A stretch of DNA of 64,000 nt from Nitrospirota bacterium (GCA_963741205.1 CAVUHW010000028.1:49315-113314), one strand, 5' to 3'; counted from the stretch's first letter, positions 578 through 9,432 are shown. Program-made: numbers and translations. The notes: generated by a model not told the origin, from the sequence alone.

Positions 578-2162
578 CTATATCTTGATCTGCTTCACCG
601 ACAGCACGTTCGGCAGCTGTCTTGATCTTTGCCATGAGCTCGTCGGACACGACGCTGTCGATGCTTACCACCGACATGGCCAGGCCGCCCTGCTTCTCGC
701 GGCCGAACTGCATGCGCGCGATGTTGATCGCCGTTCTGGCCGAGGAGCATGCCGATGCCGCCGATAACGCCCGGTTTGTCGTTGTTCATGAGCACCAGCA
801 TGTCGCCCTCGGGCACCGTCTCCATGGGGAAATTGTCCACCTGGATGATGCGCGGCTCTTTCTTGCTGTTCAGCGTGCCCGGAAGCGGACACGTCCCTGC
901 CGCCCGCCTTGATCCGGAGCGTGACGAGGCTCGTATACTCGGTAGCCCCGGTGGACTTGGACACCTTGACCTCGATGCCCCGGTCCTTGGCGATGAGCGG
1001 CGCGTTCACGTAGTTCACGTTCTCCTGCAGGGTCGGCGTGAGCAGGCCCTTGAGCGCCGCGAGCGTGATCGGCTCCTGTTTGAGGTTCGCCACCTCCCCG
1101 CTGTACTCCACGGTCACCTGGGTGAGGCCGCCCTCGGAGAGCTGGGCGATGAACAGGCCCATGCGCTCCGCAAGGTTGATGTAGGGAGAGAGCGTCGGGA
1201 GCTGGTCCGCGGGCACCGACGGCACGTTCACGGCGTTCCGCACGGTCCCGGCGACGAGGTAATCCACGATCTGCTCGGCCACGGCAACGGCCACGTTCTC
1301 CTGGGCCTCCCGGGTGGAAGCGCCGAGATGCGGCGTGGCGATAAAGTTGTCGAGGGTCAGGAGCGGATGGTTCTCCGGCGGCTCCTTCTCGAACACGTCG
1401 AAGGCCGCTGCCGCGACCTTGCCGCTCTTCAAGCGCCTCGTAAGAGATCCTGCTCGTTCACGATGCCGCCGCGGGCGCAGTTGATGATGCGCACGCCGTC
1501 CTTCATCTGGGCGATCGTGTCCTTGTTGATCAGGTTCGCCGTTTCCTTGGTCTTGGGCGTATGGATCGTGATGAAGTCGGACCGCTTGTAGAGCGTCGGC
1601 AGGTCCGCGAGCTCGATGCCGAGGCGACTTCGCCTTTTCCGCGGAGATGAACGGGATCATAGGCCAGGACCTTCATGCCGAGCCCGATGGCCCGGTTCGC
1701 GACCACGCCGCCGATCGCGCCCAGCCCGACGATCCCCAGGGTCTTGTCGTAGAGCTCGACGCCCTCGAACTTCTTCTTTTCCCACTTGCCCGCCTTGAGC
1801 GAGGCGTAGGACTGGGGGATCATCCGGGCGCAGGCGAAGATCATGCCGATGGTGTGCTCCGCCGTGGTGACCGTGTTGCCGCCGGGCGTGTTCATCACCA
1901 CAACGCCCTTCTTGGTGGCCGCCGGGATGTCCACGTTGTCCAGGCCGCTGCCCGCGCGGCCCACGACCTTGAGCTTCGCCGCCTTCTCGAGCAGCCCCGC
2001 CGTGACCTTGGTGGCCGAGCGGATGATCAGCGCGTCGTAGTCGCCGATGATCTTCTCGATCTCCTCGACCGAGGTCTTGCTCCGGGCGTCCACCTCGAGC
2101 CCGGCCTTTTTCAAGATCTCCACCCCGACGGGGGAGAGGTTGTCGCTGATGAGAACCTTCAT
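578..2162 (-). CDS. serA: D-3-phosphoglycerate dehydrogenase with ASB/ACT domains (frameshifted)
   Basis: MKVLISDNL..., RAGSGLDNVD, GLGAIG, TPHLGAST, NNDKPGVIG; pieces in ORFs 1530..2210, 665..1660 and 595..840. Confidence 0.93.
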
Positions 2163-2183
2163 GATACCTCCTAAATGCAGATG

Positions 2184-2265
2184 TAACCACAGATGAACAC
2201 GGATGGACACAAAATTAAATCCTTAATTCAGCTTTAAATAGCTTTACCGTGTTCATCTGTGGTTA
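2184..2265. repeat. Intergenic inverted repeat with 9-nt periodic arms
   Basis: TAACCACAGATGAACACGG / CCGTGTTCATCTGTGGTTA, a perfect 19-bp IR. Confidence 0.85.
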
Positions 2266-2270
2266 ATAAT

Positions 2271-3410
2271 TTATTTCATCAATATTTCCTGCGCCGCGCC
2301 GACGCCCGTACCGAGCTTCACCGGATGGCCCAGGCCCTTCAGGACCATCTCGATGCCGGCAATGGCCGTGATCACGTCGAAGGTATCGGCATAGCCCAGG
2401 TGCGCGATGCGGAAGATCTTGCCCTTGAGCTTGTCCTGGCCTCCGGCGCCGGTGATGCCGTACTTCACGCGAAGGTCCTTATAGATCGCCTGGCCGTCAA
2501 CGCCCGCGGGCGCTTCAATGGCCGTGAGCGCATTGCTCGGAGCTTTCCTTCGGGAAGAGCTTGAGGCCGAGGGCCGCGGCCCCCGCGCGGGTCGCCCGGG
2601 CGAGACGGTCGTGGCGGCGCAAACACCTTCTCGAGCCCTTCATCCTGGAGCATCTTGATGCAGGAGTTGAGCCCGATGATGAGCGTCACCGCCGAGGTGA
2701 AATTCGTCTGGTTCTTGGCCAGGTTCTCGCGCTCTTTCTTGAAATTGAAATAGAACTTCGGCGTCTTGGCCGTATCGGCCATCTTCCATGCCTTGTCGGA
2801 GACGGACACGAAGGCGAGCCCCGGGCGGAAGCATCACGCCCTTCTGCGAGCCGCCGATCATGACGTCGATGCCCCACTCGTCGGTCCTGATGTCGTGCGC
2901 CACGAGGGCCGAGATCGCATCGACGACAAAGAGCGCGTCGGTCTTCTTGACGACCGCCGCGACGGACTTGACGTCATGGTACACGCCGGTGGACGTCTCG
3001 TTCGCCTGGATGAAGACGGCCTTGATCTTCGGGTTCTTCTTGAGCGCGGCCTCGACCTGCTCGGCCTTCACCGCATGGCCCCACTCCACGATGAGCTCTT
3101 CGACCTTCATGCCGTAGGCCTGGCAGATCTTGGTCCAGCGTTCGCCGAACTTACCGCCGTTGACGACCAGCACGTCGTCGCCGGGGCTCAGGAAGTTGGT
3201 CACCGAGCCGACCATGCCGCCGGTGCCGGTGGAGCAGAGGATGAGCACGTCGTTCTTGGTCTGGTAGAGCCACTGAAGGCCCTTTTTTGCGGAATCGAGC
3301 ACCGGAAGGAAATCCGGCGCCCGGTGGTGGATGATCGGCATGGCCATGGCCAGAAGCGCCTCAGGGGGCACCGGGGTCGGGCCAGGGGCCAGAAGATATT
3401 TTTTCTGCAT
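2271..3410 (-). CDS. Class V PLP aminotransferase (alanine-glyoxylate/serine-pyruvate type; probable SerC function next to serA), frameshifted
   Basis: LLAPGPTPVP, NETSTGV, VDAISAL, GGSQKG (PLP lysine), GGQDKLKGKIFRIAHLG. Confidence 0.88.
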
Positions 3411-3715
3411 GGGTATATCCTCCATTAATAAGGGTAAGCGAAAACGCCTGTCAGGTTGTTTATCTGGTACAGCGCTGATATACGTAATCGTATTATGCTG
3501 AAGAAGATTATAGTCCCGCCGGGGCGGGACCTATGCCCGGGGTTGGCGTGTCGCTGGGATATTGTGGGTGTCTGTGCTGTTTCAAGAGGTGCTGCCTTTC
3601 TTTAGCTTATTCAGGCCAAAAACCATGTGACAGTAGCATAAGCCGATGAAAATTGTCAAGAAAATAGTTCCCCGGAACAGCAAGCTGCTCCAGGGCATCA
3701 TGAAGCGAAATAATC

Positions 3716-4111
3716 CTACTTTTGCATGATGTCCATAATCAGGCTTAATGAAACCACGGGGTTCGTGCGGTCATTGGAATACACGCTGACGTGCTTTTCG
3801 AGAGGACCGTTCTTCCCGGTCGTATCAACACTCGCCTTGATCTGCCCGACGGCCCCCGGATCCAGGTGATCCGAACTGATCACCGCGGCGGTGCACCCTC
3901 AGGAGGTCTGGACCCGCTCTATGATCAGCGGTTCCGTGCCCGCATTGCGCACCTCGAAAACATGGGTGGCCTGCGTCCCCTGAACGACTTTGCCGAAATC
4001 ATACTTCCATTCCTTGATCTCGATCTTCGGTGCCTTGGCCTCCTGGGCCGCAATCAGGCCGGCGTAAAGGAAGAAGGCCATGAGAATGCTTAACCATGCC
4101 ATCCTTTTCAT
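3716..4111 (-). CDS. Exported DUF1573-like Ig-fold protein, 131 aa, with in-frame TGA at 3899-3901 (candidate selenocysteine, S-U-G-C)
   Basis: Signal peptide, YDFGKV...HVFEVRNAGTEPLIIERVQTS-TGA-GCTAAVISSDHLDPGAVGQIKASVDTTGKNGPLEKHVSVYSNDRTNPVVSL; the frame continues to TAG at 3716-3718. Confidence 0.8.
3865..3884 (-). promoter_or_regulatory. Candidate bacterial SECIS hairpin
   Basis: GGTGATC-AGTTCG-GATCACC, a perfect 7-bp stem starting 14 nt after the in-frame UGA, with G at loop position 2. Confidence 0.65.
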
Positions 4112-4165
4112 ACGTCAGCTTCCTCTCTGCGAAGATGTTTCACATCCTTCATTTATTCCGCATCC

Positions 4166-4873
4166 TCAAAATCCTATTTTTTTCTGATAGATCATGCTGA
4201 CGAGTTCATCGCGGGAAATAATCCCTTTTTCCACGAGCAGGCTGGTGATTGCGTCGATCCGGACCCTGCAGTCCTGCAGCGCCTGCTGTGCGGTCTCTTC
4301 CTTGGACAGGATTGGCGACTTCGCATCGTTCGTCTCCGATTTCGGCATGCTGAGGTCGCTTCCGCGGATAATTTCCATTTTCCCCTCCGAGGCATGTTCT
4401 CTCTGGTAAAAAGGGTTTAGTGTTTGTTTCCGGACGATTTTCTCGTGGTCGTAGTATGTCCTGATGGCGTCCAGGATCTCGGATTCCATGGCCAAAGTCG
4501 GTTTGATGTTCAGTCCTGTAATGAAGCGGATCTCGTCGATCGCTTTGATGTCAAGAGGATCCGACATGGCTAGCATGAGCATCCCCTTCTCCCGCCGGGC
4601 CGGAACCACGTGATATTTCCTGGCAACCTCGGCTTTGACGAGCTTAATAACGCCTTCGTGGATTTCCGGTTCGAACAGATTGATGTAGGGGGTCTTAAGT
4701 TTTTCGGCAATGACGCGGGCGATGTCCTCCTCCTGCACAAATTCCAGTTCTATCAGGATGGAGCCCAGTTTGCCTCCCCAGTTCCGCTGATGAGAAAGAG
4801 CCGCAGAGAGTTGAAATTCATCGATGAGACCAGCTTCTTTCAGCAATTCGCCGAGTTTCCTGGCCTCTGGCAT
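4166..4873 (-). CDS. Stand-alone GspE/PilB N-terminal (MshEN-like) domain protein without ATPase
   Basis: KLGELLKEAGLIDEFQLSAALSHQ...KLGSILIELEFV, LAMSDPLD; no Walker A motif. Confidence 0.8.
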   Translation of the reverse strand: MPEARKLGELLKEAGLIDEFQLSAALSHQRNWGGKLGSILIELEFVQEEDIARVIAEKLKTPYINLFEPEIHEGVIKLVKAEVARKYHVVPARREKGMLMLAMSDPLDIKAIDEIRFITGLNIKPTLAMESEILDAIRTYYDHEKIVRKQTLNPFYQREHASEGKMEIIRGSDLSMPKSETNDAKSPILSKEETAQQALQDCRVRIDAITSLLVEKGIISRDELVSMIYQKKIGF

Positions 4874-5045
4874 GGGTCCGGACCTCCACCAAAAATCGCG
4901 TTCTCGAGCTGATTGTCGGTAATTATATGCTTCGGGAGCGCCGGATGTCAATAAGTATTGGAGGAAAAGAGTAATGGGGGGAGCGTTCCCCTGAAAAAAA
5001 TCCGTTGCCGCCATCGAGCTTCGCCACGGTCAATGCCGGATTCGG

Positions 5046-5579
5046 TTAATCACCTTCAAACTCCGTAAGGGTGAAGACCTTGTAGCCCTTTTCCAGAAGC
5101 TTCTTTTTCCCGCCGATGTCCGGCAGATCCACGACAAAGGCCAACTCCACGACGACCGCGCCGAGCTTTTCGACAAGCGCCGCCGCGGCCAAGGCCGTCC
5201 CGCCCGTTGCCAGGAGGTCGTCCACAAGGAGGACCCTCTCGCCTTTTTTCAGGGCGTCCCGGTGAATCTCGATCTTGTCGGTTCCGTACTCGAGGCAATA
5301 CTCCTGCGACACGACCTCCGCGGGGAGCTTGCCTTTCTTGCGGATGGGGATGAAGCCTTTGCCGAGGGTATATGCCAGCGCCGATCCGATGATGAACCCC
5401 CTCGACTCGATGCCGACGACCGTATCGAAATCAAAGTCCGCATGGGCATACCGCTGCGTCAGCGTGTCGATGACCAGCCTGAACCCGACGGGGTCCTTGA
5501 TGAGCGTGGTTATGTCGCGGAACATGATACCCTTCTTGGGATAATTCGGCACCGTCCTGATCTTTGATTTTATCGGCAT
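5046..5579 (-). CDS. apt: Adenine phosphoribosyltransferase
   Basis: PKKGIMFRDITTL, GIESRGF, RKKGKLP, VDDLLATGGT. Confidence 0.97.
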   Translation of the reverse strand: MPIKSKIRTVPNYPKKGIMFRDITTLIKDPVGFRLVIDTLTQRYAHADFDFDTVVGIESRGFIIGSALAYTLGKGFIPIRKKGKLPAEVVSQEYCLEYGTDKIEIHRDALKKGERVLLVDDLLATGGTALAAAALVEKLGAVVVELAFVVDLPDIGGKKKLLEKGYKVFTLTEFEGD

Positions 5580-6174
5580 GATTTCCTTTCTCCTTCAGCA
5601 GACTCGCCCTCTTCGTCACCGCCGTCGCCATACTGGTCCACACCGATACGGTAAAGGTCTTCCCCGTGCACATCATTCACGACGATCGCGGGAAAATCCT
5701 CGACTTCAAGCCGCATGACAGCCTCGGTCCCGAGTTCCGGATAGGCGACGATCTCGGCCTTCTTGATCGTCTTCGAGATGAGCGCTCCGGCCCCACCGAT
5801 GGCTGCGAAATAGACGGCCTTGTATTTAACGATCGCGTCCTTCACGGACTGCCCGCGCGGCCCCTTGCCGATCATTCCCTTGAGGCCGAGTTCAAGCAAG
5901 GCGGGCGTGTACTTGTCCATGCGGTAGCTTGTCGTCGGACCCGCGGAACCGATCGCCCTTCCCGGCGACGCGGGCGTCGGCCCCGTGTAGTAGAGGATCT
6001 GCCCTTCAAGTCGAACGGCGGCTTCTCGCCCTTCTGGCGCCCCTCGACGAGTTGTTTGTGGGCCATGTCCCGGCCCGTGAATATGGTCCCGGTAATGACG
6101 ACCCGATCGCCGGCCCTGAGCTTCATAACAACGTCGTCGGTCAAGGGAGGGGTGAGTTTAATGGGATCAGCCAT
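5570..6174 (-). CDS. Class I fumarate hydratase / tartrate dehydratase beta subunit (frameshifted)
   Basis: ITGTIFTGRDMAHK, MDKYTP, GMIGKG, ELGTEAV, VNDVHGEDLY. Confidence 0.88.
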
Positions 6175-6300
6175 GGTCACATGACCTCGTCATCTCACGA
6201 AAGTCATCCAGCGAAGGCATCCTAAGACAATTCTCAATTCGAATAAATTTTATTCCGTGTCAAGTTCGAATGACGAATACGAGGAAATTCCGAAATTTCT

Positions 6301-8153: not shown

Positions 8154-9432
8154 TTACAGCTTCGTGATTTTTACTTTGGTGATCTTTCTCCCCTCGAGTT
8201 CCAGGACCTCGAGCTTAAGGTTCCGGTACCTGAGTTGCTCGCCCACCTTCGGCATTCTTCCGAAAAGACCGAACACGAAACCGCCGAGCGTATTGAACTC
8301 CGTGGACTGGAGGTTTGTGTCGAGTAGCTCGTTAACCTCATCGAGCGCCGATTGGCCCGAGACCACGAAGTTCTTCTCGTCGACGATCTGGACGTCCTTC
8401 TCCTCGGCTTCGAGTTCGTCGTGGATGCTGCCGACGATCTCCTCAATCAGGTCTTCCAGCGTCACGAGGCCGGCCGTGCCGCCGTATTCGTCGATGACGA
8501 TGGCGAGTTGAAAGCGCTCACGCTGCATCTCCGAGAGGAGTTCGCTCACGCGCTTGTTCTCCGGGATGAAGTACGCCGGCCTGATGAATTGCCGGATGCC
8601 GTCTTCCCGCTTCACCTCGCCCGACCGCCATGGCGACCAGGATGTCCTTGATATACAGCGTGCCGATGACCGTGTCCACCGTGTCCTCGATCACGGGATA
8701 TCGGGAAAACCCGTGCTCCGACACGAGGGCGAACACTTCCTGAAGGGTAACATTCGACGGAACGCTCACGATTTCGGTCCGCGGCCGCATCGCCTGAGAA
8801 GCCAGCGTGTCGCCGAATTCGAAGACCTTGTGCAGCAGCTCCTTCTCCTCTTCCTTGAGCGAGCCCCGCTCCTCGCCGAGATTGATCATGGCCTTGATAT
8901 CCTCTTCCGTGACCGCCGCCGAGCAGGACACTCCCTGCGGTCCCGGACCGGCGAGCACATCGGCCGTACGGACCAGAAAACGCGCCGCGGGCGACAGGAG
9001 CGCGACCGCGGCCCGCAGCGACGGCGCCGCGGCGAGCGCAAAACCGTCGGGATTCCTGCAGGCGAGTCCCTTGGGCACAAGTTTGGCGATGAACACGACG
9101 ATTGCGCTCATGGCCGTTACGGTAACCAGCGCCGCTACGGAGACATAGGCAAAGGCATGTATCGCGACAACCGTGCCGATCACCGCTGACAGCACGATGA
9201 AGAAGTTCTCGGCCAGCAGGAGGGTCGCATGGAGGCCGTCCCGCTCCTGCACCAGCTCTAGTGCCACCGCCGCCCGGCGGTTCCCGGTTTCAGCCAGCTG
9301 CTGCAGGTGCGCCTTGTTGGACAAGACGAGGGCCGTCTCCGCGGCCGCGCTCAAGGCCGCGATGAGAACGCTCATCCCCGCCGCCCCCATCAGCAGCCAG
9401 TTATCGGATATGAATGTGAGGAAGGTGTCCAT
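8154..9432 (-). CDS. HlyC/CorC (CNNM-CBS-CorC) family transporter (frameshifted)
   Basis: TM segments, MRPRTEIV, HGFSRYPV, IDEYGGTAGLVTLEDLIEEIVG. Confidence 0.9.

Follow-up and report, generated by a model that had tools for sequence, protein, structure and literature searches.

A probable DUF1573/OS_HP2 selenoprotein gene with an in-frame UGA in a Nitrospirota genome bin

The locus and its probable operon

The DNA analysed here, a stretch of 64,000 nucleotides from a Nitrospirota bacterium (hereafter, the window), carries on its minus strand a gene for a DUF1573-domain protein that is interrupted by a TGA codon (Table 1). Starting from an ATG at 4111-4109 (-), an ORF of 70 codons (4111..3899) closes at TGA 3901-3899, and the same frame then proceeds through GGG TGC and 58 further sense codons, 60 in total, to a TAG at 3718-3716. 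These coordinates bear out the preliminary description of the window, which had reported an ORF of 70 residues ending at TGA and followed by 60 more sense codons. A search of the source genome returned a single DUF1573 gene, the one lying at this locus. The N-terminal segment of its product, as judged by eye, displays a K/R n-region, a hydrophobic core and an I-A-A/Q end, and is devoid of a lipobox cysteine.

Directly upstream lies a gene coding for an MshEN-domain protein, a class of domains that act as c-di-GMP receptors. Its likely start is the ATG at 4873, preceded by GGTGGAGG, and the mechanical ORF extends to 5014; most alignments with orthologs begin near residues 43-50. The MshEN gene closes with a TGA located 54 nt before the selenoprotein start. 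The sigma-70-like promoter candidate falls inside the mechanical ORF (4166-5014). The terminator-like hairpin downstream of the TAG is the only such site between positions 3400 and 5200, with none after the TGA, and on its own it constitutes weak evidence, because shuffled sequences give a mean of 2.3. On the strength of these consensus matches, the MshEN and selenoprotein genes can be described as a probable two-gene operon. The arrangement is shared by close relatives: of 29 orthologous loci, 28 have MshEN upstream (weakly in one case) and 26 have a class-V aminotransferase downstream. Elsewhere, the MshEN/aminotransferase pairing was seen in 1 of 80 loci, which turned out to be the same Nitrospirota contig, and hence this synteny may reflect mere lineage gene order. 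Contact between a cytoplasmic MshEN protein and an exported selenoprotein is not expected.

Several housekeeping genes in the vicinity are split into overlapping frames, both in the 665-3425 (-) region and at 102-485, 5570-6180 and 8154-9432. Examples are a serA-like gene (665-1660/1530-2210) and the class-V aminotransferase (2640-3425 plus 2271-2809), whose match of at least 90% to its orthologues ends at residue 202. These broken frames look like assembly indel errors rather than pseudogenes.

Table 1. Position and basis of the features assigned to the DUF1573 locus and its surroundings (window coordinates unless residues are given)
Feature	Position	Strand	Description	Basis
Full selenoprotein CDS (predicted)	3716..4111	-	131 residues, U at 71, plus TAG stop at 3716-3718	Frame, PF07610 match and AlphaFold2 model
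UGA probably read as selenocysteine (U71)	3899..3901	-		TGA at this column in 30/30 orthologous and 9 paralogous loci; Cys in Cys forms
G72	3896-3898	-		
C73 (TGC)	3893-3895	-		
DUF1573 Ig-like domain	residues 30-119	-		PF07610
Probable signal peptide	4046..4111	-	Residues 1-22	Judged by eye; modelled as a separate helix
Putative bacterial SECIS hairpin	3865..3884	-		Fold energy, covariation, RNAalifold, Sec versus Cys contrast, bSECIS criteria
Shine-Dalgarno-like AGAGGAAG	4119..4126	-	7 nt ahead of the ATG	Read directly
MshEN-domain gene, upstream	4166..4873	-		PF05157, 75.6 bits
Sigma-70-like promoter candidate, TTGACA-18-TATAAT	4922..4951	-	Some 50 nt ahead of the likely MshEN start codon	12/12 consensus match
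Intrinsic-terminator-like hairpin	3670..3695	-	20 nt past the TAG	11 pairs and T-rich tail

Conservation of the UGA codon and its cysteine counterparts

The behaviour of the TGA column across related genomes provides the first line of evidence on the nature of this codon. Among 61 related genomes searched, the source genome included, 46 yielded a match, and the best 30 loci (44-73% identity) were read. All 30 of these orthologous loci, which come from other assemblies and in some cases from genomes rated 100% complete, present TGA at the same column in the context (S/T)-U-G-C, always followed by GGN TGY, and the count of TGA versus TGC or TGT that had been proposed for this column thus came out as TGA throughout. 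Nine more distant paralogous loci from the same related genomes also have TGA at this position. A broader, phylum-wide draw of 301 genomes identified DUF1573 matches in 127 of them, and in the window's own family the matches extend to 57 of 63 genomes, with the source genome excluded. By hand count over the 301 genomes, an in-frame TGA is present in 106 of 146 match rows and absent from the remaining 40, with the column itself verified in 39 loci; the 60 best match rows of the draw all contain a TGA. Within the window's own Nitrospirota family, these data make the Sec form the usual one.

In the forms that lack a stop here, the column is occupied by cysteine. Nine Cys-form loci from other families of the phylum have C-G-C at this point (ten were fetched, and L058 gave no motif), as do two full-length database proteins with 64% and 58% identity. 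In more distant loci from other phyla, a motif scan located C-G-C in 70 of 80 cases, with eight giving no motif and two an asterisk (one of them, in L093, false); all 80 were retrieved with Cys-coded patterns, and the set is therefore biased towards Cys forms. No variation occurs at C71, G72 or C73 across the 31 rows of alignment A2. The S-C-G-C motif that the preliminary description had attributed to DUF1573 proteins at this position is consequently well attested, and its proposal that the first cysteine of the motif is recoded as selenocysteine gains support from the TGA/Cys alternation at the column, along with the covarying hairpin and the selenocysteine machinery described below.

DUF1573 is present in two or three copies in some relatives, and every copy has an in-frame TGA: one genome (G016) has three and five others (G004, G003, G008, G010 and G029) have two each. 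The partial match G066:C63:6-290 shows two TGA codons. Together, these copies amount to a modest multiplication of Sec paralogs in this family.

Whether assembly or sequencing had turned a TGC or TGT into this TGA was considered in view of the frame breaks nearby, which affect serA, the aminotransferase past residue 202 and other genes, and of the fact that selA is found in two frames in this genome. The visible errors are nonetheless indels, not substitutions, and could not account for an in-frame TGA, as had been anticipated, and the recurrence of the codon at all 30 loci read in other assemblies speaks against a local mistake. Among public sequencing runs, none contained more than a quarter of the sampled words, and contigs from two of them, X1 and X15, cover the stretch in parts. 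Both span the TGA (X1, 3789-3936; X15, 3739-3994) and leave 3899-3901 unchanged, with 17 differences elsewhere in the X15 contig; X15 is an RNA library, and its contig cannot show transcription. The TGA is moreover accompanied by a hairpin that is missing from the Cys forms, and the probability of an error at this codon can be set close to nil.

A second alternative takes the TGA as a true stop, with nil or marginal read-through, in which case the locus would encode an exported fragment of 70 residues, possibly accompanied by a 55-residue product initiated at GTG 3883, or else be a pseudogene. Gene callers do annotate it in this manner: of 19 database relatives, 12 are entered as fragments 72-90 amino acids long, and both fragments inspected end in ...VQTS, in line with the earlier expectation that standard annotation would truncate the protein. 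Furthermore, TGA is the commonest stop in the window, closing 26 of the 53 stop-to-stop frames of at least 250 codons, and UGA termination under scarce selenium is to be expected for any selenoprotein gene. Against this, half an Ig domain would not fold, the Cys homologues are contiguous across the site, and the terminator-like site follows the TAG and not the TGA. Moreover, the 60 codons 3' of the TGA are conserved in frame in all 30 orthologous loci, with G102 and P118 invariant and S112, N113 and D114 nearly so. A true stop at this position must therefore be regarded as very improbable.

A conserved hairpin downstream of the UGA

Recoding of UGA in bacteria relies on a hairpin (bSECIS) located just downstream of the codon, and a candidate element is readily apparent at this locus. 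The perfect 7-bp stem GGTGATC/GATCACC pairs positions 3884-3878 with 3871-3865 and encloses the loop AGTTCG (AGUUCG) at 3877-3872, within the codons for A-V-I-S-S-D-H-L. The stem begins 14 nt past the UGA and the loop, therefore, 21 nt past it, with G at its second position, exactly as in the preliminary description. According to the bSECIS model, such elements have a loop of 3-9 nt, a stem of 4-16 bp, a G in the first two loop positions, a UGA-to-loop distance of 16-37 nt and an MFE of -7.5 kcal/mol or lower (PMC13188914). With a 6-nt loop, 7 bp, G then U at loop position 2, a distance of 21 nt and an energy of -9.5 kcal/mol, the hairpin lies within all of these quoted bounds. A scan of positions 3400-4300 against Rfam, which has no fitting model for such a hairpin, gave no match at E values up to 10.

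Folded in isolation, the hairpin is more stable than most shuffled sequences (z -3.58), with only 1 of 200 shuffles folding as well, and the effect persists in a 66-nt context (z -2.32, 5 of 200 shuffles). In a 44-nt context it disappears (z -0.77, same as shuffles), and for this reason the single sequence constitutes weak evidence for the hairpin. The comparative data are considerably more informative. The 30 orthologous sequences form a gapless alignment in which the helix corresponds to columns 24-30 and 37-43, and 97.6% of its 210 cells are paired. Changes on both sides of the stem occur at three of the seven pairs, in 23 cells, comprising GC/CG exchanges in five sequences and AU/GC and UA/CG exchanges in nine sequences each; the suggestion that homologs be examined for covariation in the hairpin was thus borne out by compensatory changes. 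In 500 shuffles, neither the pairing nor the covariation score of the real alignment was attained, a figure that overstates significance and should not be read as a probability, because related sequences are being compared and the helix falls within conserved codons. As a control, one arm was slid by 1-3 columns, and pairing fell to 21-50%. RNAalifold, when applied to the alignment, predicts the same helix unprompted.

The nature of the substitutions is also instructive. In several of the swaps, an amino-acid change on one arm is coupled to a synonymous change on the other, as in I/V with the third base of a D/N codon, V/L with the third base of an Arg codon, or ATC/ATT with GAT/AAT. In the paralogs, the loop RGTYC is kept on entirely different stems. 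A simple scan for a stem of at least 7 bp at the right distance detected it in 35 of 39 Sec forms versus 3 of 83 Cys forms; for the loop motif, the corresponding figures were 37 of 39 and 4 of 83. The stem count in Sec forms is conservative, since one of the Sec misses, L037, was scored at the wrong site and its true site has a 7-bp stem. Given that the TGA is conserved in 30 of 30 loci, that the helix covaries and that Cys forms go without it, the hairpin is more than a product of chance. Hence, both the downstream frame and the hairpin, which the preliminary description had singled out as the features to be looked for in TGA-bearing homologs, are conserved in them.

Selenocysteine machinery and genetic code of the source genome

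The source genome is a draft bin of 4.27 Mb in 50 contigs, rated 84.5% complete with 4.9% contamination. It contains the components for selenocysteine synthesis and insertion whose presence had been proposed as a check: tRNA-Sec, selA (531.1 bits), selB (371.6 bits) and selD (352.4 bits), all of which score above curated cut-offs. selA and selB are adjacent on contig C26 (85156-88560; L009, L017 and L018). A frame break around codon 370 divides selA in two, and the reading frame of its first portion runs on into selB, remaining open over 1176 codons. The selD gene, on contig C14 (97717-98643; L019), has one in-frame TGA, and is therefore probably a selenoprotein gene itself.

Two tRNA-Sec genes with anticodon tca were detected, scoring 63.5 bits (L001:1497-1595, contig C45) and 57.8 bits (L002:1498-1592, contig C30). 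They differ strongly from each other, with 54 of 108 alignment columns identical, and the second gene is either a second selC or an indication that one of the two contigs comes from a contaminant, contamination being estimated at 4.9%. Neither of the two lies in selB, an arrangement (selC embedded in selB) that a review describes for some Nitrospirae.

Decoding of the UGA outside the Sec system, be it through a code change (TGA as Trp or Gly) or by a near-cognate or suppressor tRNA, would likewise keep the frame open, and nothing specific points to it. The use of TGA to end 26 of the 53 long frames, together with the TGA that terminates the gene directly upstream, excludes a general reassignment of this codon. 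Additionally, among the hits examined, the tca anticodon occurs only on tRNA-Sec, the homologues align Cys at the column and not Trp or Gly, and the hairpin fits the bSECIS model. A non-Sec decoding of this UGA is thus improbable in the extreme. In conjunction with the conservation data, the evidence indicates that the gene is very probably a genuine selenoprotein gene of the DUF1573/OS_HP2 family, in which UGA would be recoded as selenocysteine, and that it belongs to a Nitrospirota clade of that family.

Domain assignment and predicted fold

The protein obtained by reading through the UGA matches PF07610 (DUF1573) with 91.9 bits against a cut-off of 26.1, and the match spans the TGA, aligning residues 30-119 with positions 1-90 of the 98 in the profile; on genomic DNA, the same profile scores 84.4 bits. 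A further match is to the HYDIN/VesB-like Ig family. The AlphaFold2 model derived from the 31-row alignment (mean pLDDT 91.1) is an eight-strand sandwich preceded by an N-terminal helix (residues 3-22) of lower pLDDT (71), and it places U71-G72-C73 in a turn between strands 62-69 and 73-77. A structural search with Foldseek retrieved 2qsv as the best PDB match (E 1.8e-07, TM 0.68 on the query, rmsd 2.1 over 109 columns, 22% identity), followed by PapD-like, ASH and HYDIN domains. A sequence search of the PDB gave nothing below an E value of 0.1, with 2qsv at 0.46. The earlier depiction of the product as an Ig-fold protein bearing a signal peptide is therefore upheld by the model and by Foldseek as regards the Ig fold and the presence of an N-terminal helix; the designation of this helix as a signal peptide was made only by eye.

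The assignment to a thioredoxin fold with a C/U-x-x-C/U motif fails on this model. The predicted structure is an all-beta Ig sandwich with a U-x-C motif, the Foldseek matches listed are mostly Ig-like, PapD-like and related beta-sandwich proteins, and no thioredoxin-fold protein figures among them.

Expression and possible function

Delivery of selenocysteine at UGA by SelB and a downstream hairpin is the established bacterial pathway, and a plausible course of events can be laid out for this gene. The mRNA would be co-transcribed with the MshEN gene, from the sigma-70-like promoter to the terminator past the TAG. At UGA codon 71, SelB-GTP-Sec-tRNA(Sec), positioned on the hairpin 14 nt downstream, would bring about insertion of selenocysteine instead of termination. 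Once exported, the resulting product of 131 residues would be trimmed of a signal peptide some 22 residues long and would fold in an extracytoplasmic setting, and the mature protein of about 109 residues would adopt a PapD/HYDIN-like Ig sandwich with U71-G72-C73 in a tight turn between strands.

Some orientation on the role of such a protein can be obtained from its Cys-form counterparts. Of 79 Cys-form loci examined in other phyla, 24 have genes for a rhodanese, a MauE/DoxX membrane protein and DUF1573 lined up in this order on one strand. The loci presenting this cassette, found among L077-L151 (e.g. L082:417-1851 and L096:354-1803), belong to Ignavibacteria, Bacteroidota and kin, and mostly to Ignavibacteria and kin; their DUF1573 protein is of the C-G-C form, and the relatives are 36-48% identical. 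A representative of the MauE-like proteins (L150) has itself a C-G-C-G stretch. The cassette is absent at the selenoprotein locus, where the neighbours are the MshEN and aminotransferase genes, and PF07291 (MauE) was not found in the source genome, rated 84.5% complete. The rhodanese and MauE/DoxX neighbours point nonetheless to sulfur or thiol chemistry, and they lend a direction to the search for function. We infer, with about even odds of being right, that U71 acts as a nucleophile and C73 as its resolving partner in a putative periplasmic selenylsulfide, or selenol-thiol, centre for redox or sulfur-transfer reactions.

The same gene and the same Sec recoding are compatible with a different activity, in which the U-G-C turn would bind a soft metal or metalloid (e.g. 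Cu(I), Hg, Cd or As) and the protein would chaperone or scavenge metals in the periplasm. Binding of Cu(I) by C-x-C sites has precedents in other proteins, and the AlphaFold2 model presents two chalcogen ligands, with one Gly between them, in an exposed turn. The tables of published reviews list several metal-handling selenoproteins with UxxC or UxxU motifs (MerT-like, E1-E2 ATPase, YHS domain and 'metal-binding protein') beside DUF1573 (PMC9312934, PMC13188914). On the opposite side, neither the window nor the 29 orthologous loci have a metal-resistance or transporter gene adjoining, and the neighbours that recur in other phyla, rhodanese and MauE/DoxX, suggest sulfur or thiol chemistry instead. 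Metal binding is accordingly retained as a possible, though rather unlikely, activity of the protein, with a smaller share of the weight left for some other function.

Returning to a selenol/thiol centre, a more far-reaching proposal may be put forward, if only speculatively and with considerable doubt. The U/C-G-C turn on its Ig-like scaffold would constitute a putative distinct, non-thioredoxin type of extracytoplasmic selenol/thiol centre, which would be partnered by MauE/DoxX and rhodanese elsewhere and, in the Nitrospirota, would be obligately Sec-dependent and encoded in an operon with a cytoplasmic MshEN protein. If this proposal were true, the selenium supply and the handling of redox and sulfur reactions in the envelope would be tied to second-messenger control through a non-thioredoxin centre.

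Relation to known selenoproteins and folds

The preliminary description had implied that a selenoprotein of this type was novel, an implication that has to be abandoned, for DUF1573/OS_HP2 selenoproteins with the U-G-C motif are already in print (PMC1976440, PMC2398784, PMC9312934, PMC13188914). OS_HP2 was introduced, as a computational prediction, among the new selenoprotein families of the Olavius symbiont metagenome, with two selenoproteins and no Cys homologues (PMC1976440, Zhang and Gladyshev, NAR 2007). In the table of the GOS study it appears in the row 'OS_HP2, pfam07610, UxC, 2, 2, 354', in which 354 is the number of Cys homologues (PMC2398784), and review tables include the DUF1573 domain-containing protein (pfam07610/PF07610) with motif UGC (PMC9312934, PMC13188914). 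As the family was described as a selenoprotein in 2007, the gene reported here is an ordinary member of it. The published accounts of OS_HP2/DUF1573, in the parts consulted, do not name a Nitrospirota member, and their supplementary member lists may include some; a functional study of DUF1573 was not found in the literature.

The best NCBIfam match of the protein is NF041425, 'OS_HP2 family (seleno)protein', of type subfamily_domain, with 86.1 bits (79.5 bits on genomic DNA), which falls short of the curated cut-off of 100. All 11 proteins scanned, drawn from the phylum and from near database relatives and comprising both Sec and Cys forms, score 68-87 bits against this model, and by this measure the Nitrospirota clade is placed just outside the strict subfamily. 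Its position outside the NF041425 cut-off is one of the aspects that the present work adds to the description of the family, together with the predicted fold, the operon layout, the distribution of Sec forms in the phylum and the rhodanese-MauE/DoxX-DUF1573 cassette of other phyla. Another is the finding that most database entries stop at the TGA. Because the gene is mis-called in most entries as a fragment of 70-80 residues, the selenoproteomes of Nitrospirota are under-counted. The family also offers a clean and well-controlled Sec/Cys pair with a covarying, in-frame SECIS.

Compared with the OS_HP2/DUF1573 selenoproteins described previously, the present gene shares the pfam07610 domain, the U-x-C (UGC) motif, a single Sec residue, a stem-loop 3' of the UGA and the existence of many Cys homologues. 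The original members, however, come from deltaproteobacterial worm symbionts and ocean samples, whereas this one comes from a Nitrospirota bin. The closest structural likeness, coupled to a weak sequence match, is to 2qsv, an uncharacterized protein of P. gingivalis W83 with DUF1573-type Ig domains. It differs in having two domains and 220 residues and in being a Cys-era protein, and since its function is unassigned it contributes no mechanism. The PapD-like, ASH and HYDIN-VesB Ig-like domains (PF22544, PF14874) belong to the same fold class as the selenoprotein, but they are scaffolding or chaperone domains in which no redox motif was seen, the invariant C/U-G-C turn being particular to DUF1573. 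Lastly, selenoproteins of the thioredoxin fold with UxxC/CxxU motifs (DsbA-, DsbG-, Grx- and Prx-like) make up most of the published selenoprotein lists, as far as these were consulted. They likewise have Sec in place of a Cys that is paired with another close by, and exported proteins are found among them. They are nonetheless built on a different fold, and their U-x-x-C motif stands against the U-x-C that DUF1573 displays on its Ig sandwich.
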